Shown: positions 3,621 to 44,784 of the stretch, in pieces
Position numbering within the stretch: position 1 is the stretch's first letter
How the letters are laid out: every line of letters begins with the position of its first letter
Sequence record: NC_047889.1
From: Escherichia phage mutPK1A2
DNA: 44,784 bases
Reading direction: 5' to 3' (one strand)
The notes under the pieces: generated by a model
What the model was told of the DNA's origin: nothing
The model's input: only the letters and a program-made list of their open reading frames with translations
The model's database searches: none
Translations under genes and position numbers: made by a program

Positions 3621-6248
3621 ATGCAAGACCTACACGCTATTCAACTTCAACTTGAAGAAGAAATGTTTAACGGCGGTATCCGTCGCTTTGAAGCGGACCA
3701 ACAACGCCAGATTGCATCCGGTAATGAATCAGACACGGCATGGAATCGCCGCTTATTGTCCGAACTAATCGCACCTATGGCGGAAGGTATTCAGGCTTAC
3801 AAGGAAGAATACGAAGGCAAGAGAGGTCGTGCACCACGTGCATTAGCTTTCATTAACTGCGTAGAAAACGAAGTAGCAGCATATATCACCATGAAAATCG
3901 TTATGGACATGCTGAATACAGACGTTACCTTACAAGCCATCGCTATGAATGTAGCGGACCGCATCGAAGACCAAGTACGTTTTAGCAAGCTGGAAGGTCA
4001 CGCAGCTAAATACTTTGAGAAAGTGAAGAAGTCGCTTAAGGCTAGCAAGACTAAATCTTATCGTCATGCGCACAACGTAGCGGTAGTAGCTGAGAAATCT
4101 GTTGCTGACCGTGACGCGGATTTCTCCCGTTGGGAGGCATGGCCTAAAGACACCTTGCTGCAAATCGGTATGACCTTGCTCGAAATATTGGAGAATAGTG
4201 TATTCTTCAATGGTCAACCTGTCTTCCTTCGTACCTTGCGCACTAACGGCGGAAAGCATGGTGTTTACTATTTACAGACCAGTGAACATGTTGGCGAGTG
4301 GATAACTGCATTTAAGGAACATGTAGCGCAGCTCAGCCCTGCCTATGCACCTTGCGTTATACCTCCCCGCCCTTGGGTATCACCTTTTAACGGTGGGTTT
4401 CATACTGAGAAAGTAGCAAGCCGTATTCGTCTGGTAAAAGGCAATCGTGAGCACGTCCGCAAGCTGACCAAAAAGCAAATGCCAGCGGTTTACAAGGCTG
4501 TTAACGCTTTGCAGGCGACTAAGTGGCAGGTTAATAAAGAGGTTTTGCAGGTAGTAGAAGACGTTATCCGTCTCGACCTTGGTTATGGTGTGCCTTCCTT
4601 TAAACCGCTCATTGACCGCGAGAACAAGCCAGCTAATCCAGTGCCGCTAGAATTTCAGCACCTACGGGGCCGTGAACTGAAAGAAATGCTTACGCCGGAA
4701 CAATGGCAAGCCTTTATCAACTGGAAAGGTGAATGCACCAAGCTGTATACCGCTGAGACTAAGCGCGGCAGCAAATCGGCGGCGACCGTCCGCATGGTAG
4801 GACAGGCCCGTAAATACAGCCAGTTTGACGCAATATACTTCGTGTATGCACTGGACAGCCGCAGCCGCGTCTACGCGCAATCTAGCACGCTCTCTCCGCA
4901 ATCAAACGACTTAGGCAAGGCATTGCTCCGTTTTACCGAAGGGCAGCGCCTTGATAGCGCTGAGGTGCTTAAATGGTTTTTGGTGAACGGGGCTAATAAC
5001 TGGGGTTGGGATAAGAAAACTTTTGACGTGCGCACCGCTAACGTGCTGGATAGTGAATTTCAAGACATGTGCCGCGACATTGCAGCGGATCCGCTGACCT
5101 TCACTCAATGGGTTAATGCCGACTCCCCTTACGACTTCCTTGCTTGGTGCTTTGAATATGCGCGTTATCTGGATGCACTGGATGAAGGCACGCAAGACCA
5201 ATTCATGACGCACCTCCCAGTCCATCAAGATGGTAGTTGTTCTGGTATCCAGCACTACAGTGCTATGCTACGCGATGCAGTAGGTGCGAAAGCGGTAAAC
5301 CTTAAGCCCTCTGACTCCCCTCAAGATATTTATGGTGCCGTTGCGCAGGTAGTAATTCAGAAGAATTATGCATACATGAATGCAGAGGATGCGGAAACCT
5401 TCACTTCTGGCAGCGTGACTTTAACAGGTGCAGAACTTCGTAGCATGGCTAGTGCGTGGGATATGATAGGAATCACTCGCGGCCTGACCAAAAAGCCCGT
5501 AATGACACTACCTTACGGCAGCACACGTCTAACCTGCCGTGAGTCAGTGATTGATTATATCGTTGATTTAGAAGAAAAAGAGGCCCAACGGGCTATTGCG
5601 GAAGGGCGTACCGCCAACCCTGTACATCCTTTTGATAATGACCGTAAGGACAGCCTGACACCTAGCGCAGCTTATAACTATATGACAGCTCTAATCTGGC
5701 CTTCTATCTCGGAAGTGGTTAAAGCTCCTATAGTGGCAATGAAAATGATTCGTCAGCTTGCACGTTTCGCAGCTAAAAGAAACGAAGGCTTAGAATATCC
5801 CTTACCAACTGGCTTCATCTTGCAACAAAAGATAATGGCTACCGATATGCTCCGCGTATCCACTTGCTTGATGGGTGAAATCAAGATGAGTCTCCAGATT
5901 GAAACAGATGTAGTTGATGAAACGGCAATGATGGGTGCGGCTGCTCCTAACTTCGTCCATGGTCACGATGCTAGCCACCTGATTCTGACTGTATGTGACC
6001 TAGTGGATAAAGGTATTACATCCATTGCAGTCATCCATGATTCTTTCGGTACTCATGCAGGACGTACCGCAGACCTGCGGGATAGCTTAAGGGAAGAAAT
6101 GGTTAAGATGTATCAAAACCATAATGCCCTGCAAAACCTGCTAGATGTGCACGAAGAGCGTTGGTTAGTAGACACCGGAATCCAAGTACCAGAGCAAGGG
6201 GAGTTTGACCTTAACGAAATCTTAGTTTCAGACTATTGCTTCGCATAA
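3621..6248 (+). CDS. Single-subunit DNA-dependent RNA polymerase, SP6-type
   Basis: 875 aa; N-terminus [32 protein letters not shown] recognised as SP6 RNAP; catalytic motifs [13 protein letters not shown] and HDSFGTH present; RBS AGGAG. Confidence 0.95.
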
Positions 6249-6255
6249 TATTAAT

Positions 6256-6288
6256 AGGCCATTCCTTCTGGAGTGGCCTTTCCTTTTA
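6256..6288 (+). terminator. Candidate intrinsic terminator after the RNAP gene
   Basis: 10-bp stem AGGCCATTCC / GGAGTGGCCT with loop TTCT followed by TTCCTTTT. Confidence 0.5.
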
Positions 6289-6322
6289 CCTACTACCTGT
6301 AACATTTCATTAACATAAACGT

Positions 6323-6338
6323 GTCTCACATGTGAGAC
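6323..6338. repeat. 16-bp perfect palindrome GTCTCACATGTGAGAC (copy 1)
   Basis: Exact palindrome directly upstream of the promoter at 6341. Confidence 0.85.
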
Positions 6339-6340
6339 TT

Positions 6341-6363
6341 ATTTACCGGACACTATAGGAGAA
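6341..6363 (+). promoter_or_regulatory. Phage RNAP promoter ATTTACCGGACACTATAGGAGAA
   Basis: Matches the recurring consensus ATTTAC(T/C)GGACACTATAGAAG; GACACTATAG core as in SP6-class promoters. Confidence 0.7.
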
Positions 6364-6505
6364 ACCATCGGAGATGGGAAAGAGAAGGGAAGTTAAAGGA
6401 TATAAAGGTAGTAATAGGTATTAAAGGTTATATAGGTTACCTAGGAATACCTATTACCTTCCTCCTTCCTCTTATTACTACTTAGAGGAAGGGCAGACCT
6501 AGGTT

Positions 6506-6521
6506 GTCTCACATGTGAGAC
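6506..6521. repeat. 16-bp palindrome GTCTCACATGTGAGAC (copy 2)
   Basis: Exact copy, again directly upstream of a promoter-like element. Confidence 0.85.
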
Positions 6522-6526
6522 TTCGT

Positions 6527-6549
6527 ATTTACCGGACAGTATAGATAAG
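6527..6549 (+). promoter_or_regulatory. Degenerate promoter-like element ATTTACCGGACAGTATAGATAAG
   Basis: Two core substitutions (CAGTATAGAT vs CACTATAGAA); tandem with the promoter at 6341, reminiscent of the T7 phi1.1A/1.1B pair. Confidence 0.4.
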
Positions 6550-6574
6550 ACTAATTCACTTTGGAGATTTAACC

Positions 6575-6703
6575 ATGCGTAACTTTGAGAAGATGACCCG
6601 TAAAGCTAACCGTTTTGACATGGAAGAAGGGCAGACGAAAGGCAAGAAGCTGAATAAGCCTGTCCGTGACCGTGCATCTAAACGCGCTGCGTGGGAGTTC
6701 TAA
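6575..6703 (+). CDS. Small basic protein (42 aa), gene 1.1-like
   Basis: MRNFEKMTRKANRF... starts like my recollection of T7 gp1.1 and sits right after the RNAP gene; RBS GGAG; below the ORF-track size cutoff. Confidence 0.5.
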   Translation: MRNFEKMTRKANRFDMEEGQTKGKKLNKPVRDRASKRAAWEF

Positions 6704-6706
6704 GTT

Positions 6707-8695
6707 ATGACTATTATTCAGAATGTACCGTGTCCTGCCTGTCAAAAGAATGGACATGATATTACTGGCAACCATCTTATGATATTTGAGGATGGCGCTG
6801 GTTACTGTAACCGTGGTCACTTCCATGATAACGGTAAGCCTTATTACCATAAGCCAGAGGGTGGCATCGAGATAACCGAATTGCCTATTACTGGCAATAT
6901 TAAATATACACCTTCTCAGTTTAAAGAGATGGAGAAGGAAGGGAAGATTAGCGACCCTAAGCTACGCGCCATCGCACTTGGTGGTATGCGTATGAAAGAC
7001 CGTTGGGGGGTTATGAATGAGCAAGAAAGGGCAGACCAAGAAGCAGAGTGGAAACTTGATGTTGAATGGTTCCTCACGCTTAAGCGTAAGAACCTTGTAT
7101 CCCGTCACATTCGAGGTGACATCGCAGCAATGTACGATGTGCGCGTTGGACACGATGAAGAGGGAAGAGTCAACCGTCACTATTATCCACGATATGAAAA
7201 GGGTGTGCTTGTTGGAGCAAAATGCCGGACGTTGCCGAAGGATTTTAAGTTCGGACACCTAGGTAAACTCTTTGGTATGCAAGATCTTTTCGGGATGAAT
7301 ACTTTGTCTCACGTGTTAGACAAGGGAAGACGAAAGGATTGCTTGCTTATTGTGGGCGGCGAACTGGATGCACTAGCAGCACAGCAAATGCTCCTTGATT
7401 CTGCCAAGGGTACTAAGTGGGAAGGCCAGCCTTATCATGTATGGTCTGTCAACAAAGGCGAGTCTTGCCTTGAAGAGATAGTGCAGAACCGTGAGCATAT
7501 CGCCCAATTCAAGAAGATTATATGGGGTTTTGATGGAGATGAGGTAGGGCAGAAGCAGAATCAGCAAGCGGCTCGCCTGTTTCCTGGCAAATCCTATATC
7601 CTTGAATACCCATCTGGTTGCAAAGATGCTAACAAGGCATTGATGGCTGGCAAGGCTAAAGAGTTTGTTGATGCTTGGTTTAATGCCAAGTCATCTGATG
7701 AAGTCTTTGGTAGCCAGATTAAATCTATCGCATCTCAAAGGGATAAGCTCAAGGCTGCACGTCCAGAGCAAGGGCTATCATGGCCTTGGCCTAAGCTGAA
7801 CAAGGTAACGCTAGGTATTCGTAAGAACCAGCTTATCATTGTAGGTGCAGGCTCTGGTGTAGGTAAGACTGAGTTCCTCCGCGAAGTGGTTAAACATCTT
7901 ATTGAAGAACACGGTGAATCTGTAGGCATCATTTCTACAGAAGACCCGATGGTCAAGGTGTCCCGTGCTTTTATCGGTAAGTGGATTGATAAGCGCATTG
8001 AGTTACCGCCAACCAATGACCCGAAAGAAGACGGATACCGTGAGGTGTTCGACTACACCGAGGAAGAAGCTAACGCTGCCATTGATTATGTGGCTGATAC
8101 AGGAAAGCTATTTGTGGCTGACCTAGAAGGCGACTATTCTATGGAGAAGGTAGAGCAAACTTGCCTAGAGTTTGAGGCTATGGGCATTTCTAATATCATC
8201 ATTGATAACTTAACGGGGATTAAATTAGATGAGCGTGCTTTTGGTGGGAAGGTTGGTGCACTTGATGAATGCGTCAAACGAATTGGTACTATCAAAGACC
8301 GACATGCGGTTACGATTTTCCTTGTCTCTCACCTTACACGTCCTCCGGCAAACCGTACCCAACACGAAGAAGGTGGCGAAGTTATCCTTTCTGACTTCCG
8401 AGGCTCAGGCGCTATCGGATTCTGGGCATCTTACGCCTTGGGGATTGAGCGTAATACAAGAGCTGAAACGCTTGATGAAAGGACTACCACGTACATCTCG
8501 TGTGTCAAAGACCGCGACCAAGGAATCTACACTGGAACCAAGGTCATGCTTAAGGGTGACATTCAAACCGGACGTTTAATGGAACCACAAGCCCGTACTA
8601 AGTCATTTGATACAGGTGAAGCAAGGCAACAAGAAGTACCTGATTTACCTGACACTATAGAAGGGACTAACTTCGATGAAGAAAGTGAGTTCTGA
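6707..8695 (+). CDS. DNA primase/helicase (T7 gp4-like)
   Basis: 662 aa; N-terminal Cys zinc-binding region (CPACQ...CNRGH), Walker A GAGSGVGKT, acidic C-terminus ending EESEF. Confidence 0.9.
   Translation: MTIIQNVPCPACQKNGHDITGNHLMIFEDGAGYCNRGHFHDNGKPYYHKPEGGIEITELPITGNIKYTPSQFKEMEKEGKISDPKLRAIALGGMRMKDRWGVMNEQERADQEAEWKLDVEWFLTLKRKNLVSRHIRGDIAAMYDVRVGHDEEGRVNRHYYPRYEKGVLVGAKCRTLPKDFKFGHLGKLFGMQDLFGMNTLSHVLDKGRRKDCLLIVGGELDALAAQQMLLDSAKGTKWEGQPYHVWSVNKGESCLEEIVQNREHIAQFKKIIWGFDGDEVGQKQNQQAARLFPGKSYILEYPSGCKDANKALMAGKAKEFVDAWFNAKSSDEVFGSQIKSIASQRDKLKAARPEQGLSWPWPKLNKVTLGIRKNQLIIVGAGSGVGKTEFLREVVKHLIEEHGESVGIISTEDPMVKVSRAFIGKWIDKRIELPPTNDPKEDGYREVFDYTEEEANAAIDYVADTGKLFVADLEGDYSMEKVEQTCLEFEAMGISNIIIDNLTGIKLDERAFGGKVGALDECVKRIGTIKDRHAVTIFLVSHLTRPPANRTQHEEGGEVILSDFRGSGAIGFWASYALGIERNTRAETLDERTTTYISCVKDRDQGIYTGTKVMLKGDIQTGRLMEPQARTKSFDTGEARQQEVPDLPDTIEGTNFDEESEF
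8643..8665 (+). promoter_or_regulatory. Phage promoter ATTTACCTGACACTATAGAAGGG inside the 3' end of the primase/helicase gene
   Basis: Good consensus match; T7-like phages often embed promoters in the ends of genes. Confidence 0.6.
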
Positions 8696-8716: not shown

Positions 8717-8732
8717 GTCTCACATGTGAGAC
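8717..8732. repeat. 16-bp palindrome GTCTCACATGTGAGAC (copy 3, extended stem CTTGTCTCACATGTGAGACAGG)
   Basis: Exact core with extended complementary arms, followed by CTCTTATT. Confidence 0.85.
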
Positions 8733-10087: not shown

Positions 10088-10292
10088 AGTCAGTAAGGTT
10101 TGCTCTTGCGGTAAAGGTTATCGCAGTCGTATTGATGGTAAGTGTGGGCATTGCAGGTCTAAGAAAGAGGCTGCTTTGTTTGATAAGTACCACAATGAAT
10201 TAGCATATAACTATCCTCATCTAACACCTAATTCTTTATTAGGACTTGGTTATAGGGTTAAATACTTTGGAGCAATCTATGAAATCAATTGA
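10074..10292 (+). CDS. Small zinc-ribbon-like protein (72 aa; CxC...CxxC)
   Basis: In-frame ATG at 10074 with GAGG upstream inside track ORF 10047..10292; four Cys in VCSCGKG...CGHC; overlaps the DNAP start by 14 nt. Confidence 0.45.
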   Translation: MKAIKVSKVCSCGKGYRSRIDGKCGHCRSKKEAALFDKYHNELAYNYPHLTPNSLLGLGYRVKYFGAIYEIN

Positions 10293-12825
10293 TTGGAAGA
10301 AGGAAGCAGAAGGCCGCATCTTAGTGATGGATTCTGAGGCTAAAGGCCTGCTGGATGCTATCCGATATGGCCACCGCGAAGATGTGCACATCATTTGCTG
10401 CATGGATTTGCTTACTACAGAGGAGTTCCTCTTCTTTGACCCATACGAGATGCGTGACCCTGAAGCAAGAGAACGCCTAAAAGAATGGGAAGGCCATCAA
10501 GATGGAACATTGGTTGACGGTGTTAACTTCCTTAAGCACTGCGAAGCCATCGTCTCACAGAACTTCCTAGGGTACGACGGCCTTCTATTTGAGAAAGCAT
10601 TCCCTGATATCTGGAAAGGCTTTAACTATACCGAGAGACGCGGCAAGGGCAGACTCCGCGCTGACCTGTGTCCGGTACGCGTCATGGATACGCTGGTCAT
10701 GAGTCGCCTGTTAAACCCCGATAGACGCCTCCCTCCGCAAGCATACGCCAAAGGCATGGGTAACGTAGCCCCTCACTCAATTGAGGCGCACGGCATCCGT
10801 ATAGGCCGTTATAAGCCGGAGAACGAGGACTGGTCTAAACTAACGGACCACATGGTTCACCGTGTACGTGAAGACGTGGCTATTGGTCGCGACCTCTTCC
10901 TCTGGCTATACAACGGGGAATGGACGGAGCACAAACGCCGTGGCGTGAATAAACGTACGGGCCTAGGCATTGAGACGGCCTTCCACATGGAATCAATTGT
11001 GGCGCTGGAGATGAGCCGTCAGGCCGAGCGTGGATTCCGTCTGGATATAGATAAAGCATTAGCACGATGCGAGGAATTGGACGCTAAGATTGATGAGACA
11101 GTCGCAGCGTTCCGTCCGCACATGCCTATGCGTATCAGGTCTAAACCTTTTAAACCGGAAGAAAAGAATGAAGTATGCCAACGCGCAAATGAGTATGGAG
11201 CTAGCAACAATATACCTACTGTCCTTGACCCCTCACACTTTCTTCATGCCGAGAGACGAGGAGATCGCAAAACAGTATGGAGTGTCACTACTAAGTCTGG
11301 TGATTGGTCGGCTAGTATCAAGAAAGACTTTCCTCACCTTAGAGGAAACCGTAATGACACGCCAAGTATCAAGTGGATTGGCGCTTACTCGCCTGTTACT
11401 TTCGAAGAGATTCCCTTGGGTAACAGGGATACAGTTAAGCAAGTGCTCTATGATTATGGATGGAAAGGTGTTGAATTTAACGATACCGAGCAAGCGCATC
11501 TGGATGAGTATGGAGTGTTACCCAAACCTTGGAGTGGGAAGATAAATGAAAAGTCCCTTACTTTATGGCAAGAGAGAGCCGCACGTGAAGGTAAAACAGT
11601 CCCTGATTGGTGCTTGGGTATCGCTGCATGGTACATACTCGTATCCCGTCGTGGTCAGATCCTTAACCGTGGTGACGTTGAAGCCTTCGACCAGAAGGGG
11701 GCGTGGCCTTCGCAAGCTGGTGTACGAAAGTGTCGCGGCCTTGTACCTGTAGCATTTAACAAGGAGTTAGGAATCAATGCGCAGCAATATTACGAAAGGT
11801 ACGGATGCTGGCCTACGTCAGACAAGGATGACGGAGAGTGGCGTGTGCCAGCTATTGCTATTAGTATTGGAACTTCTACGTTCCGTATGCGTCATCGTAA
11901 CGTGGTTAATATTCCTGCCCGTGGTTTGTATCCTTTACGTGATTTATTCATAGCCGGTAAAGGTAAGCTAATCCTTGGTTGTGATGGTGCTGGTCTTGAA
12001 CTACGTGTACTGTCTCACTTCATGAATGACCCTGAATATCAAGATATTGTACTGCATGGTGACATTCACACCCATAATCAAATGAAGGCTGGTCTTCCTA
12101 AGCGTGACATGGCGAAGACATTTATATATGCCTTCCTATATGGGTCTGGTATAGCTAGCCTTGCAGCAGTATGTGGTGTTACTGAGGAAGAAATGGAGGA
12201 AGTTGTGGCAAGATTTGAGGTTGAACTACCATCTCTTGCACGTCTTCGTGAGAATGTTATCGCACAAGGTAACAAGTTTGGCTACCTACAAGCACCTGAT
12301 GGTCATTGGGGTCGCATCCGTATGTCTGGTGGTGAACTTAAAGAGCACACTATGCTTAACGTGTTACTCCAAATGACTGGCTCTTTGTGTATGAAATACG
12401 CATTGGTCAGAGCGTTTGCAGTGATGCGCAAGGAAGGTGTGGCCTTAGATAGCATGGGAAACCCTTGCGGTATAGCTAACGTGCACGATGAAATCCAGAT
12501 GGAAGTCCCTGAAGATGAGGTCTTGTTTCTCAACTACGACTTGCCTTTCACCTTAGAAGGGTTCGAAACAGAGAAGGCTGCTGTGAAAGCAGTGTTCGAT
12601 GCAGAGGAGAAACGTGTTCATGTGGATTCTGAAGGACGTATGTGGTCTGCTGCAAATCTCGTTAGCGTTGATGCTGATGCTGGTGTACTTCATTGCCAGC
12701 GTCGCTATCACCGTGCAGGGCATATCATTGCCGACGCAATGACTTGGGCGGGTCAGTATCTGAAGATGCGTTGTCCGATGGCAGGTGAGTATAAGATTGG
12801 TGCAAGTTGGAAGGAGACACACTAA
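10279..12825 (+). CDS. Family A DNA polymerase (T7 gp5-like)
   Basis: 848 aa from ATG 10279 (RBS GGAG); exo motif DSEAKGL, pol motifs DGAGLELRVL, RDMAKTFIYAFLYGSG, HDE. Confidence 0.95.
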   Translation: MKSIDWKKEAEGRILVMDSEAKGLLDAIRYGHREDVHIICCMDLLTTEEFLFFDPYEMRDPEARERLKEWEGHQDGTLVDGVNFLKHCEAIVSQNFLGYDGLLFEKAFPDIWKGFNYTERRGKGRLRADLCPVRVMDTLVMSRLLNPDRRLPPQAYAKGMGNVAPHSIEAHGIRIGRYKPENEDWSKLTDHMVHRVREDVAIGRDLFLWLYNGEWTEHKRRGVNKRTGLGIETAFHMESIVALEMSRQAERGFRLDIDKALARCEELDAKIDETVAAFRPHMPMRIRSKPFKPEEKNEVCQRANEYGASNNIPTVLDPSHFLHAERRGDRKTVWSVTTKSGDWSASIKKDFPHLRGNRNDTPSIKWIGAYSPVTFEEIPLGNRDTVKQVLYDYGWKGVEFNDTEQAHLDEYGVLPKPWSGKINEKSLTLWQERAAREGKTVPDWCLGIAAWYILVSRRGQILNRGDVEAFDQKGAWPSQAGVRKCRGLVPVAFNKELGINAQQYYERYGCWPTSDKDDGEWRVPAIAISIGTSTFRMRHRNVVNIPARGLYPLRDLFIAGKGKLILGCDGAGLELRVLSHFMNDPEYQDIVLHGDIHTHNQMKAGLPKRDMAKTFIYAFLYGSGIASLAAVCGVTEEEMEEVVARFEVELPSLARLRENVIAQGNKFGYLQAPDGHWGRIRMSGGELKEHTMLNVLLQMTGSLCMKYALVRAFAVMRKEGVALDSMGNPCGIANVHDEIQMEVPEDEVLFLNYDLPFTLEGFETEKAAVKAVFDAEEKRVHVDSEGRMWSAANLVSVDADAGVLHCQRRYHRAGHIIADAMTWAGQYLKMRCPMAGEYKIGASWKETH

Positions 12826-12991: not shown

Positions 12992-13014
12992 ATTTACTGG
13001 ACACTATAGAAGGA
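12992..13014 (+). promoter_or_regulatory. Phage promoter ATTTACTGGACACTATAGAAGGA
   Basis: Exact consensus copy. Confidence 0.75.
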
Positions 13015-13078
13015 AATCCTAGGTAATCTAGGTTTATAAGGTAGTATAGGTAACTAAGTAAATATAGGAGATATAAAT

Positions 13079-17198: not shown

Positions 17199-18198
17199 GC
17201 TTCGCAGCTTGTACAAAGACTCCGAGGTACTTGATGCAATCGAGCAAGCTACCGACGAGAAAGGTAATGTTAACTACAATGAGATGGCACGTGTATTATC
17301 GTGTCATCCTGTGGGTAAGAAGATTACCCGCCAGTTGGCTCGATACTGGCATGGTCAATTCAAGAAGACCAAGAAGAATGGTGATTACTATCAGACTCTT
17401 CTGCAAGAGGATCGGCGCATCAAAGAAGGGCGTAAGCTCAGGACTCCTGACCGTTACGAGGATTTGGCTGTTGTACCATTGCCTGACTCGCCTCATCGAA
17501 GTGTACTGGTAATCCCTGATACTCATGCACCTTATGAGCACCCAGATACCTTAGGGTTCCTTGCAGCAGTGGCAGCACGTTACCGTCCAGACACAGTGGT
17601 ACATCTCGGAGATGAAGCAGATAAACACGCCCTCTCCTTCCACGACTCTGATCCAAATCTGGATAGTGCTGGGGTGGAATTGGAGAAGGCTCGTGTCTTT
17701 ATGCATAAGCTGCATAAGATGTTTCCTGTGATGCGCCTGTGTCATTCTAATCACGGCTCTATGCACTTCCGTAAGGCAAGCGCCAAAGGTATTCCTGTAC
17801 AATATCTGCGTACCTATCGTGAAGTCTTCTTTCCGCATGGGGGTGGCGACCAGTGGGATTGGCAGCATACACACGTTCTTGAGTTGCCGAATGGTGAACA
17901 GGTTGCATTTAAGCATCAACCCGCAGGCTCAGTCTTAGCAGATGCAGCGCATGAGCGCATGAACTTAGTGTGCGGTCACTTGCATGGTAAGATGTCGGTG
18001 GAGTATGCACGTAATACACATGAACAGTATTGGGCTGTGCAGGGCGGCTGTTTGATTGATGAGTCATCTCGTGCATTTGCCTATGGTCGTGAGTCCAAAT
18101 ACAAGCCAGCATTAGGTTGTGTGGTTATTCTGGAGGGTGTGCCGCACATTGTCCCGATGCAGACCAATAGTGATAATCGCTGGATTGGTAAGATTTAG
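17191..18198 (+). CDS. Calcineurin-like metallophosphoesterase
   Basis: Motifs VIPDTHAP (DxH), HLGDEAD (GDxxD), CHSNHGS (GNH-like), GHLHG; start placed at TTG 17191 behind AAGGAGG (track ATG 17056 would overlap the resolvase by 143 nt); start is uncertain. Confidence 0.65.
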   Translation: MGKLRSLYKDSEVLDAIEQATDEKGNVNYNEMARVLSCHPVGKKITRQLARYWHGQFKKTKKNGDYYQTLLQEDRRIKEGRKLRTPDRYEDLAVVPLPDSPHRSVLVIPDTHAPYEHPDTLGFLAAVAARYRPDTVVHLGDEADKHALSFHDSDPNLDSAGVELEKARVFMHKLHKMFPVMRLCHSNHGSMHFRKASAKGIPVQYLRTYREVFFPHGGGDQWDWQHTHVLELPNGEQVAFKHQPAGSVLADAAHERMNLVCGHLHGKMSVEYARNTHEQYWAVQGGCLIDESSRAFAYGRESKYKPALGCVVILEGVPHIVPMQTNSDNRWIGKI

Positions 18199-36795: not shown

Positions 36796-38693
36796 TGGCT
36801 AAGGCAAGAGAATCACAAGCAGAGGCTCTTGCCAGATGGGAGATGCTACAGGAATTACAGCAGACCTTTCCTTACACAGCGGAAGGTTTGCTTCTCTTTG
36901 CAGATACAGTTATTCATAACTTGATTGCAGGCAAACCTCATCTGATTCGTATGCAGGCCGATATTTTAAAGTTTCTATTCTATGGACATAAATATCGCCT
37001 CATCGAAGCGCCCCGTGGCATCGCTAAAACTACACTATCAGCAATCTATACTGTTTTCCGTATCATCCATGAACCCCATAAGCGTATCATGGTAGTGTCC
37101 CAAAACGCCAAGCGAGCAGAGGAAATTGCAGGTTGGGTAGTGAAAATCTTCCGTGGCCTAGACTTCCTTGAGTTTATGCTACCGGACATATACGCTGGCG
37201 ACCGTGCATCAGTCAAAGCATTTGAGATTCACTACACGTTACGCGGCAGCGATAAGTCACCTTCTGTATCCTGTTACTCTATCGAAGCAGGTATGCAGGG
37301 TGCTCGTGCTGATATTATTCTAGCAGATGACGTAGAATCGATGCAGAATGCTCGTACAGCAGCAGGCCGCGCCTTGCTTGAGGAGTTGACCAAGGAGTTT
37401 GAATCTATTAACCAATTTGGTGACATCATCTACCTTGGGACGCCTCAGAACGTAAACTCTATCTACAATAACTTACCTGCTCGTGGTTACTCGGTTCGTA
37501 TCTGGACCGCACGTTATCCTTCAGTAGAGCAAGAGCAATGTTATGGTGACTTCCTTGCACCTATGATTGTGCAGGATATGAAAGACAACCCAGCACTTCG
37601 CTCTGGTTATGGGTTAGACGGTAACAGTGGTGCACCTTGCGCACCTGAAATGTACGATGATGAAGTGCTGATTGAGAAGGAAATCTCTCAGGGTGCGGCT
37701 AAGTTCCAGCTTCAGTTTATGCTTAATACTCGCATGATGGATGCTGACCGCTATCCGCTACGCCTGAATAACCTCATCTTCACTTCATTCGGTACAGAGG
37801 AAGTCCCTGTGATGCCTACATGGAGCAACGACTCTATTAACATCATTGGCGATGCACCGAAGTATGGCAATAAGCATACAGACTTTATGTATCGCCCTGT
37901 GGCCCGACCTTATGAGTGGGGTGCTGTTACCCGCAAGATTATGTATATTGACCCCGCAGGTGGCGGTAAGAACGGGGATGAAACTGGTGTGGCTATCGTC
38001 TTCCTGCACGGCACATTCATTTATGTGTATCAGTGCTTTGGTGTGCCGGGAGGATACCGCGAATCGTCCCTGAATCGCATTGTGCAGGCCGCAAAGCAGG
38101 CAGGTGTTAAAGAGGTATTCATTGAAAAGAACTTTGGTCATGGCGCGTTTGAGGCCGTTATAAAGCCATACTTTGAACGAGAGTGGCCTGTGACTCTGGA
38201 GGAAGATTACGCCACCGGACAGAAAGAGTTGCGTATCATTGAAACACTAGAGCCACTAATGGCGGCCCACAGGCTCATCTTCAACGCAGAGATGGTCAAG
38301 TCTGATTTTGAGTCGGTACAGCACTATCCGCTTGAACTACGCATGTCATACAGCCTTTTCAATCAAATGTCGAACATCACGATTGAGAAGAACAGCCTAC
38401 GACACGATGACCGCTTAGACGCTCTGTATGGCGCTATACGGCAATTAACTTCTCAGATAGACTATGACGAGGTTACACGGATTAATCGCCTCAGAGCGCA
38501 GGAGATGCGCGATTACATCCATGCTATGAACACACCTCACCTCCGTAGGGCAATGCTCTATGGAGATTATGGCACTGAGCGAAGAGTAACCAACACTTCC
38601 GTGGCTATGCAGCAAAGAGTATACGGTCAGAATTACAGGAGTAAATCGGCAAGCAGAAATACACTTTCTGCAAGGATTTCAAGGACTTATTAA
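36795..38693 (+). CDS. Terminase large subunit
   Basis: 633 aa; Walker A-like APRGIAKTT; size and position typical of T7 gp19. Confidence 0.85.
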   Translation: MAKARESQAEALARWEMLQELQQTFPYTAEGLLLFADTVIHNLIAGKPHLIRMQADILKFLFYGHKYRLIEAPRGIAKTTLSAIYTVFRIIHEPHKRIMVVSQNAKRAEEIAGWVVKIFRGLDFLEFMLPDIYAGDRASVKAFEIHYTLRGSDKSPSVSCYSIEAGMQGARADIILADDVESMQNARTAAGRALLEELTKEFESINQFGDIIYLGTPQNVNSIYNNLPARGYSVRIWTARYPSVEQEQCYGDFLAPMIVQDMKDNPALRSGYGLDGNSGAPCAPEMYDDEVLIEKEISQGAAKFQLQFMLNTRMMDADRYPLRLNNLIFTSFGTEEVPVMPTWSNDSINIIGDAPKYGNKHTDFMYRPVARPYEWGAVTRKIMYIDPAGGGKNGDETGVAIVFLHGTFIYVYQCFGVPGGYRESSLNRIVQAAKQAGVKEVFIEKNFGHGAFEAVIKPYFEREWPVTLEEDYATGQKELRIIETLEPLMAAHRLIFNAEMVKSDFESVQHYPLELRMSYSLFNQMSNITIEKNSLRHDDRLDALYGAIRQLTSQIDYDEVTRINRLRAQEMRDYIHAMNTPHLRRAMLYGDYGTERRVTNTSVAMQQRVYGQNYRSKSASRNTLSARISRTY

Positions 38694-38714
38694 TTACCGG
38701 ACACTATAGAAGGA
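38692..38714 (+). promoter_or_regulatory. Phage promoter AATTACCGGACACTATAGAAGGA
   Basis: Consensus core immediately after the terminase stop; followed by an AT-rich TAGGT-repeat leader and hairpin GGGTGTAC-TCCT-GTACACCC. Confidence 0.7.
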
Positions 38715-38845
38715 AGGCCCAGATAATAAGAGAAATAACAAGGATAATATAGGTTAACCTAGGTTATATAGGTATTCCTTAGTATGGGTGTACTCCTGTA
38801 CACCCTATTCCTTACTTCCTTACTATATTAACTATAATAGGAGAT

Positions 38846-44497: not shown

Positions 44498-44784
44498 TCT
44501 CGCCCTCGCCCTCGCCGGACTTTCCCCATATGGGGTCGCGCTGCGGTTGGCTTGGGAATTGGGCTAGGCTGGGCCGTCTTCAACCTGCTGCCGCAGGAAG
44601 CTCGACGGGCTGGCTGAGGTTTGCCTTGTACTCGCTTAGTGGTACACAAGGAGAACGCCTAGGAAGCGCTAGGGCACGCCTTAGTATTGGACAAGGTGAT
44701 TGCCTTAGTGCATCCGCTTAGGGCTTACACGGGCCGTTTTAGGGCCATTCCTGAGCGTTTGACAGGGTGTGTTGGTGTGGGCTA
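44498..44784. repeat. Right direct terminal repeat (DTR)
   Basis: Same sequence as 1..287; T7-like genomes carry terminal redundancy used in concatemer formation and packaging. Confidence 0.9.

Follow-up and report, generated by a model that had tools for sequence, protein, structure and literature searches.

A conserved control region downstream of the RNA polymerase gene in an SP6-group phage and its possible role as a replication origin

The window analyzed here was the 44,784-nt sequence of Escherichia phage mutPK1A2 (NC_047889.1), which was a complete genome, and the element in question was the interval between its RNA polymerase (RNAP) gene, or gene 1, and its homologue of T7 gene 1.1. 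The data described below left little doubt that this interval is the gene 1/gene 1.1 control region of an SP6-group phage. There was strong support for the idea that host-polymerase early transcription stops at a hairpin terminator at positions 6256 to 6289. It was similarly clear that two phage promoters, P1 and P2, launch the transcription of gene 1.1 and of the primase/helicase gene, and that P1 transcripts carry a 186-nt leader that is strongly constrained, structured, and compositionally extreme. By analogy with T7, the same module may also be the main transcription-primed replication origin, and we gave this additional role an even chance of being correct.

The genes on either side of the interval provided the basis for a comparison with T7. 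The left boundary was the gene for an 875-amino acid (aa) phage single-subunit RNAP (3621 to 6248, + strand), which was found in the open reading frame (ORF) list and is annotated as such in K1-5, K1E, and SP6. The right anchor was a 42-aa ORF (6575 to 6703, + strand) whose product was 59% identical to T7 gp1.1 (E = 1e-13) and matched the Pfam family Phage_1_1 (PF08200; E = 7e-16). In the T7 map, gene 1 ends at 5822 and is followed by phi1.1A at 5848, phi1.1B at 5923, and gene 1.1 at 6007; phi1.1A and phi1.1B constitute the T7 primary origin (PMC8373140). Because the RNAP gene was located on the left and the gene 1.1 homologue was located on the right, the interval was the positional orthologue of the T7 phi1.1A-R1.1-phi1.1B origin region. 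A first-pass annotation of the same DNA had proposed a primary origin at this site based on an analogy of layout, and the positional orthology of the two intervals is a stronger basis for that proposal. In addition to the RNAP gene upstream and the 42-aa gene 1.1 downstream, both intervals contained two tandem rightward phage promoters. In both, the sequence transcribed first was rich in A+T, poor in C, and furnished with short repeats (of the TTAAG type in T7 and (T/A)AGGT here), and both phages use the same replication enzymes (RNA polymerase, primase/helicase, and DNA polymerase).

The terminator identified in our terminator scan (6256 to 6289, + strand) consisted of a 10-bp hairpin (6256 to 6279) followed by TTCCTTTTAC, with a T-run that extended to 6289. 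A counterpart of this hairpin was present in all relatives and is annotated as a terminator in KAW1A4500 and PM 116. A conserved non-coding block of about 30 nt (TTTTACCTACTACCTGTAACATTTCATTAACA; 6284 to 6318, + strand) was located between the terminator and the first of two palindromes. The block had a diversity (pi) of 0.035, which, like all of the diversity figures given here, was calculated from 12 Vectrevirus genomes. It was near-identical across Vectrevirus, Zindervirus, and Klebsiella K44-type phages, and it was positioned upstream of P1, outside the P1 and P2 transcripts.

P1 (6341 to 6358, + strand) was an exact match to the 18-nt consensus promoter ATTTACCGGACACTATAG, and its +1 nucleotide was presumably G 6358, as judged from a comparison with the SP6 promoter. 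P2 (6527 to 6544, + strand; putative +1 at 6544) was a conserved nonconsensus variant, CAGTATAG, with one mismatch (CAG for CAC) and a pi of 0.007. The 18-nt motif had 13 matches in the genome, compared to 0.02 expected; 12 of the matches were on the + strand, and one match with three mismatches was on the - strand. Each of the two promoters was preceded by the 16-bp palindrome GTCTCACATGTGAGAC, to which no strand was assigned. Palindrome 1 (6323 to 6338) was exact and was located 2 nt upstream of P1, and palindrome 2 (6506 to 6521) was an exact copy located 5 nt upstream of P2 with a pi of 0. Thus, the terminator after the RNAP gene, the two tandem promoters (a consensus promoter at 6341 and a degenerate promoter at 6527), and the palindrome before each promoter, all of which had been proposed in the first-pass annotation, were borne out.

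P2 deviated from the consensus in every relative, and each deviation was conserved within its lineage. In Vectrevirus and Acadevirus, the deviation was the CAG for CAC substitution just upstream of TATAG, and in Zindervirus and the K44-type phages, it was TATTG for TATAG. The distance between P1 and P2 was 186 nt, compared to 75 nt between phi1.1A and phi1.1B in T7, and the P2 start site was only 30 nt from the gene 1.1 start codon.

The relatives used for comparison were loci from an annotated phage collection and 80 loci from a viral-contig collection, which were retrieved via the RNAP C-terminus. The full order of elements was terminator, palindrome, P1, a 5' hairpin (H1), AGGT array, pyrimidine tract/hairpin, (palindrome), P2, and gene 1.1. 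This full order was present in Vectrevirus, Zindervirus, the Klebsiella K44- and K13-types, Acadevirus (Proteus), and Pectobacterium phage PP1, and a one-promoter form of the arrangement was present in Erwinia phage phiEa100 and Vibrio phage BD5. The arrangement recurred in at least seven related phage lineages. Conservation in relatives was a point on which the first-pass proposal of an origin had been made to depend; the arrangement was kept across genera, and a lack of conservation was not found. The AGGT motif itself was invariant between genera, and the array of Vibrio BD5 was present without a complementary arm.

The diversity data also pointed to strong constraint. The 326-nt non-coding interval had a diversity of 0.039, which was about six-fold lower than the 0.23 to 0.24 found at third-codon positions of the flanking genes and close to the 0.015 to 0.032 found at their first and second positions. 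Based on these values, the interval was as constrained as protein-coding positions.

Two side observations concerned the neighborhood of gene 1.1. The third-codon diversity of gene 1.1 (6575 to 6703) was 0.063 versus 0.23 to 0.24 in the flanking genes, which suggests that nucleotide-level constraint extends through gene 1.1. In BP12B, UAB_Phi78, PM 85, PM 116, LL11, VEc3, and Mt1B1_P10, an HNH homing-endonuclease gene was inserted next to gene 1.1, either on the side of P2 or on the side of the primase gene. No HNH gene was found inside the P1-to-P2 block in the four loci with sequence examined (L007 to L010).

The leader of the P1 transcript contained, in order, H1, a purine-rich stretch, four (T/A)AGGT repeats, a long inverted repeat (H2), a pyrimidine tract, and a third hairpin (H3), all of which are described on the + strand. 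The purine-rich stretch and the (T/A)AGGT repeats, which started at 6405, 6415, 6424, and 6433 with a spacing of 9 to 10 nt, were contained in a 70-nt C-free tract (6370 to 6439). This was the longest C-free run in the genome; the next longest was 39 nt, and none of 200 Markov simulations produced a run of more than 58 nt. Similarly, the 60-nt window with the lowest C content had 0 to 3% C in Vectrevirus, Zindervirus, and one Acadevirus locus (L037), compared to 8 to 15% in the RNA-polymerase-gene controls. The tract was followed by a 39-nt G-free pyrimidine-rich tract (6446 to 6484), which was the second-longest G-free run in the genome. Neither of these two runs had been mentioned in the first-pass annotation.

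The repeats and the AT-rich segment that had been noted in the first-pass annotation held up in this analysis. Specifically, TAGGT occurred three times (0.25 expected) and CCTAGG occurred twice (0.05 expected) in 6358 to 6505, and the core at 6395 to 6460 had a G+C content of 29%, compared to 45% for the genome, a value within the bottom 0.2% of 60-nt windows. The AT-richness of this core was equaled or exceeded at about eight other sites in the genome.

A low C content was also a property of the origin promoters of T7. When 17 T7 promoters were used for calibration, the promoters that act as origins or are reputed to do so (phiOL, 1.1B, 6.5, and OR) had the lowest C fractions over +1 to +80 (0.09 to 0.15), and three of the four also had the lowest G+C fractions (0.25 to 0.33; the value for phiOR was 0.38). 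In the window, the lowest C fractions over +1 to +80 were found at P1 (0.04) and at the promoters at 12992 (0.06), 18193 (0.09), and 38692 (0.10). At least three (T/A)AGGT motifs were present within +1 to +100 of 3 of the 12 promoters, namely P1, 12992, and 38692, compared to 2.9% of random 100-nt windows. Because the lowest-C pattern matched the T7 calibration, these three array-bearing promoters carried the compositional mark of T7 origin promoters. P1 was the most extreme of the three and the only one that was part of a tandem pair.

H1 (6365 to 6377; +8 to +20 of the P1 transcript) was a 5-bp hairpin, CCATC-GGA-GATGG, with a z of -3.3. Its third pair was A-T, G-C, T-A, or C-G among relatives, and the change was compensated every time. 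H3 (6464 to 6492) was formed by CCTTCCTCT and AGAGGAAGG around an 11-nt loop and had a z of -4.1, with none of 200 shuffles folding as well; equivalent hairpins with compensatory changes were found in relatives.

H2 (6411 to 6457) was formed by GTAATAGGTATT and AATACCTATTAC, which were 12-bp perfect arms at 6411 to 6422 and 6446 to 6457, and its apex included the palindrome TAGGTTACCTA (6433 to 6443). One of the two arms was carried by the C-free run. H2 was the only 12-bp perfect inverted repeat in the genome with a loop of up to 68 nt. The first-pass annotation was therefore correct about the existence of the repeat, but its coordinates (6408 to 6419 and 6448 to 6459) were off by 2 to 3 nt. 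In most Vectrevirus relatives, about 18 to 22 paired positions with mismatches were predicted around the 12-bp perfect core, and a long central hairpin was predicted in every clade. Relative to shuffles, the folding of H2 was weak (z = -1.3 to -2.5). A cross-genus alignment recovered H1 and misaligned the H2 arms, so covariation was analyzed per clade, and this per-clade analysis gave no clear signal of structural covariation in H2.

The same three-hairpin fold was predicted for the leader of every clade. In 25 of 34 relatives, whose sequences were not independent, the + strand folded better than the - strand; the K13-type clade was reversed. The within-clade changes included 16 that involved G.U pairs, 9 A.C mismatches, and 6 compensatory changes (mostly in H1 and H3), and the excess of G.U changes was not significant. 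Taken together, the strand-folding and pair-change data lean towards a predicted RNA structure on the transcribed strand.

The hairpins are central to the idea that the region is devoted to transcription and RNA processing only. According to this idea, P1 and P2 start the middle genes, H1 to H3 protect the mRNA 5' end, H2 is the counterpart of T7 R1.1, and replication starts elsewhere or at no fixed site. The T7 segment between phi1.1A and phi1.1B is one that we take to be the R1.1 RNase III hairpin. Like H2, R1.1 is an irregular hairpin that is located between tandem promoters and is transcribed from the first of them, and H2 occupied exactly this position. The three-hairpin leader of every clade, the compensatory changes and z values of H1 and H3, the greater stability of the + strand in most relatives, and the number of G.U-involving changes relative to A.C mismatches all fit a role in the RNA. 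Moreover, 5' hairpins also followed the promoters at 18193, 23399, and 41035. On the other hand, the G.U excess and the strand preference were subject to the limits noted above, the z of H2 was modest, and H2 had no detectable sequence homology with R1.1. H2 was also located in a repeat array whose motif persisted in Vibrio BD5 without a complementary arm, and a role confined to RNA processing leaves this armless array and the invariance of AGGT across genera unexplained. The same is true for the extreme C-free composition and for the conserved block upstream of P1. In the whole window, there was no match at the gathering score in Rfam 15, and matches in the region were at chance level (for example, a plant microRNA model scored 23 bits versus a gathering score of 85). 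We considered a processing-only region to be a real possibility on the unlikely side, and RNA processing does not exclude an origin role.

Other explanations of the leader were also considered. The ORF list contained no ORF of at least 40 aa in 6290 to 6560, and the sole ATG frame of the leader (6374, 16 codons) lost its start codon in K1E-type relatives (ACG), so the leader was rejected as coding sequence. TAGGT resembles positions -15 to -11 of the SP6 promoter, which raised the idea that the (T/A)AGGT repeats are decoy promoter halves. This idea was rejected because the repeat motif was unchanged in genera with TACCGG or TAAAGA promoters. The repeats were also unlikely to be translational enhancers; at P1 and 38692, they were located 60 to 130 nt from the start codon and behind hairpins, and the case at P1 was further weakened by the location of the repeats behind a second promoter as well.

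One further repeat was observed in this part of the sequence. The segment at 6480 to 6498, which consisted of the H3 3' arm and GGGCAGAC, recurred inside gene 1.1 at 6618 to 6636 (19 nt, 84% identity) with an 11-nt exact core, GAAGGGCAGAC. This repeat might be due to chance or be the remnant of a duplication.

If the module is also a transcription-primed origin, then the elements described above suggest how it might work. The P1 RNA would stay hybridized as an R-loop over the C-free, AT-rich, easily melted tract, and the combination of a purine-rich RNA and a foldable displaced strand would favor such an R-loop. The phage DNA polymerase would extend the P1 RNA rightward, and the primase/helicase would load on the displaced strand to produce a leftward fork. 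Each time P2 fired, a short distance downstream, the negative supercoiling that it added might help open the tract. H2 may double in the RNA as a processing or stabilizing hairpin, like T7 R1.1, and the origin role and the RNA-processing role of H2 are compatible. Tandem T7 promoters have been found to raise promoter-primed replication in vitro relative to a single promoter (PMC12796468).

The proposed priming step has parallels in R-loop-primed origins, such as those that depend on ColE1 RNA II or on the mitochondrial light-strand promoter and CSB II, in that a transcript is proposed to persist as an RNA:DNA hybrid over a strand-asymmetric tract with purine-rich RNA and to prime DNA polymerase; the mitochondrial polymerase is T7-like. 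This parallel is an analogy only, and no G-quadruplex-type sequence was present here. There was also a likeness to T7 phiOR, phi6.5, and phiOL, where a phage promoter is followed by AT-rich, C-poor sequence. The modules described here differ from these T7 sites in that they share an explicit repeat motif and paired purine and pyrimidine tracts.

Several points weighed against an origin in this interval. The first was a difference in layout. The first-pass claim that the layout was the same as in T7 was correct for the tandem promoters, the AT-rich tract, and the place after gene 1. It was not correct for the relative order of these elements, as the AT-rich tract follows both promoters in T7 and was located between P1 and P2 here, which means that AT-rich sequence was directly downstream of P1 but not of P2. 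Second, a search of the accessible literature found no mapped initiation for any SP6-group phage. Third, the promoters, the 5' hairpins, and the structured leader were fully explicable by transcription and mRNA stability. Fourth, the combination of a promoter and an AT-rich repeat was also found at 12992 and 38692. Fifth, the detrended skew minimum of the window (6369) coincided with the boundary between the early, host-transcribed genes and the middle, phage-transcribed genes. Finally, one paper (PMC4837284) attributes to Dobbins et al. (2004) the suggestion that bidirectional replication of SP6 originates in the region of its DNA polymerase gene.

The interval differed from the T7 primary origin in other ways too. 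Here, the early terminator was located right after the polymerase gene, whereas the T7 terminator TE is located after gene 1.3. The 16-bp palindrome before each promoter has no equivalent in the T7 interval, and origin activity has been demonstrated in T7, whereas the interval described here is a candidate.

The two other array-bearing modules raised the question of whether one of them is the main origin and the post-RNAP site is secondary at most. The module at 12992 to 13061 (+ strand) was located downstream of the DNA polymerase gene and contained a promoter followed right after +1 by four (T/A)AGGT repeats. No 150-nt window of the genome was more AT-rich than the one in which this module lay (30% G+C), and the module was syntenic in K1-5 and SP6. 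The counterpart in SP6 was located at 12542, about 400 nt beyond the SP6 DNA polymerase gene (the region attributed to Dobbins et al.), and the minimum of the detrended SP6 purine skew was at 12506. The module at 38692 to 38840 (+ strand) contained a promoter and a purine tract together with three TAGGT repeats and a GC-rich hairpin that showed covariation; it also included the G-free run that was the longest of the genome (38799 to 38839). Its counterparts in K1-5, SP6, and the Proteus phage Pm5460 directly followed the terminase large-subunit gene. This is the position of T7 phiOR, which is a known secondary origin (PMC8373140). Against these points, the 12992-type array was absent in Pm5460, and the post-RNAP module had the widest range among relatives and the sole tandem promoters. 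In addition, the orthology with the T7 primary origin pointed to 6.3 to 6.5 kb, and the skew arguments were unreliable on T7 itself. We judged it improbable that the main origin is at 12992 or 38692.

Skew analyses and primase sites did not help to locate an origin. The first-pass annotation had pointed to cumulative GC skew as a check on the post-RNAP site, and this check gave no diagnostic signal; the cumulative skew rose monotonically, and the sign of the GC skew never changed. After detrending, the minimum was at 6369 in the window, 6602 in K1-5, 6690 in SP6, 9808 in Pm5460, and 9537 in T7, where the real origin is at about 5.9 kb. GC, AT, purine, and keto skews were rejected as origin evidence because they showed no sign change, their slope inflection at about 6.4 kb fell on the early/middle gene boundary, the method misplaced the T7 origin, and Pm5460 disagreed. 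In the case of primase sites, the SP6 primase reportedly recognizes 5'-GCA-3', a specificity said to have been described by Tseng, Frick and Richardson in 2000. From the polymerase stop codon to gene 1.1, GCA occurred once (6493), and neither strand of the C-free tract can contain it. In T7, the primase site in the AT-rich cluster is reported to be unused (PMC12839067). Primase sites were not informative.

The palindromes formed a family. The 16-bp palindrome had eight genome copies at up to three mismatches, compared to 0.23 expected, and 0 of 100 shuffles reached eight copies. The copies were located at 612, 6323, 6506, 7306, 8717, 9933, 15011, and 31557; these sites were syntenic in K1-5 and SP6, and five of them were also found in Pm5460. 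The copies at 6323, 6506, and 15011 were bare and were located just upstream of promoters (6341, 6527, and 15042, respectively). In contrast, the copies at 8717, 9933, and 31557 each formed the tip of a 13-bp hairpin that had U.G pairs and a U-rich tail and resembled a terminator. One imperfect copy was located inside the primase/helicase ORF and was common to the window, K1-5, and SP6. The sequence of the palindrome was genus specific with the dyad retained (GTCTCAC.., GTCCAAC.., and a 17-mer in Proteus phages), and the genus-specific version filled the same pre-P1 position in relatives. A GTCTCAC..GTGAGAC core was found in E. coli, Erwinia, Pseudomonas, and Vibrio phages. We found no occurrence of the GTCTCACATGTGAGAC palindrome sequence in the searchable literature.

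The retention of perfect dyad symmetry despite sequence change between genera would be expected if the module is recognized by a protein, with the palindromes acting as operators or insulators and the AGGT repeats acting in an iteron-like manner. A candidate phage or host protein would then serve as an early-to-middle switch or as an initiator. The placement of palindromes at syntenic sites in four genomes, including the site inside the primase gene, fits this idea, as do the occurrence of the GTCTCAC...GTGAGAC core in phages of four host groups and the constancy of the AGGT motif and its spacing of about one helical turn across genera with differing promoters. However, no candidate binding protein emerged. 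The early ORFs lacked a recognizable DNA-binding domain, and the small ORFs in the neighborhood yielded neither an initiator-like domain nor one for DNA binding. Three of the palindrome copies per genome were the hairpin tips described above, which looked like terminators or stabilizers, and one of them is annotated as a terminator in Pm5460. The conserved repeat unit of 5 nt was far below the size of known iterons. An iteron-type origin, for which we looked for three or more phased direct repeats of typically 17 to 22 bp and a nearby initiator gene, was rejected for the same reason; only a 5-nt core phased at 9 to 10 nt was conserved. To our knowledge, T7 replication requires no initiator protein, and this also counted against recognition by a protein. 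We regarded this explanation as very unlikely.

A related proposal is that the SP6 group and several other non-T7 lineages of the same family have a compound origin that T7 lacks. It would consist of the genus-specific palindrome, a phage promoter, a 5' hairpin, and a phased (T/A)AGGT array within a C-free tract, with up to three syntenic copies in each genome. A dedicated protein would read the palindrome, the array, or both, and initiation would depend on this factor instead of being simply promoter-primed. This proposal seemed doubtful to us, and we would put it forward only tentatively.

Palindrome and promoter units were found at three locations in the window (6323/6341, 6506/6527, and 15011/15042). 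The T4-type promoter-early stem-loop (PeSL) cassettes are repeated stem-loop and promoter units at gene-module boundaries, and the units described here are similar in this respect. The two types of unit differ in phage family, in polymerase, and in the order of their elements.

An additional observation on the palindromes came from the Zindervirus Salmonella phage Kenya-K30 (L006, 2001 to 2110). The palindromes of this phage were of the GTCYAAC type, yet it also carried a copy of the Vectrevirus-type GTCTCACATGTGAGAC. This copy adjoined an additional ORF of 30 aa that was inserted downstream of gene 1.1 and ahead of the primase gene, which hints that palindromes may travel with small gene cassettes.

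The SP6- and K1-5-type phages, which have applications in therapy and engineering, are also the source of an RNA polymerase that is in wide use. The analysis provided defined origin candidates for such phages, a primary candidate at 6.3 to 6.55 kb and paralogous modules at 13.0 kb and 38.7 kb, with sub-elements that can be mutated separately (both palindromes, H1, the C-free tract with its repeats, H2, and the nonconsensus P2). If the gene 1/gene 1.1 module is a transcription-primed origin, then the use of promoter-primed initiation at this location, as in T7, would be older than the divergence of the T7 and SP6 groups, and replication systems that are driven by SP6-type polymerases would gain a second, orthogonal promoter-origin. 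If it is not, then the constrained leader and the conserved palindromes still call for an explanation.

The remaining features concerned the genome as a whole. The window had a 286-bp exact terminal direct repeat (1 to 286 and 44499 to 44784), and its taxonomic placement was the SP6 group of the subfamily Molineuxvirinae (Autographiviridae), with a K1-5/K1E-like genome. The region at 6200 to 6720 was 94 to 96% identical to that of Vectrevirus phages such as K1-5, K1E, and AAPEc6; its identity to that of SP6 was about 72%. The DNA primase/helicase gene (6707 to 8695, + strand), which is the first replication gene served by P1 and P2, and the DNA polymerase gene (10246 to 12825) were identified from the ORF list and the annotation of relatives. 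Short repeats were also observed at the left end of the window, where arrays of the CCTTAGT/CTTAGTG type were present at 330 to 700. In Pm5460, a palindrome and a phage promoter were found at about 560 to 590, which is a phiOL-like position.

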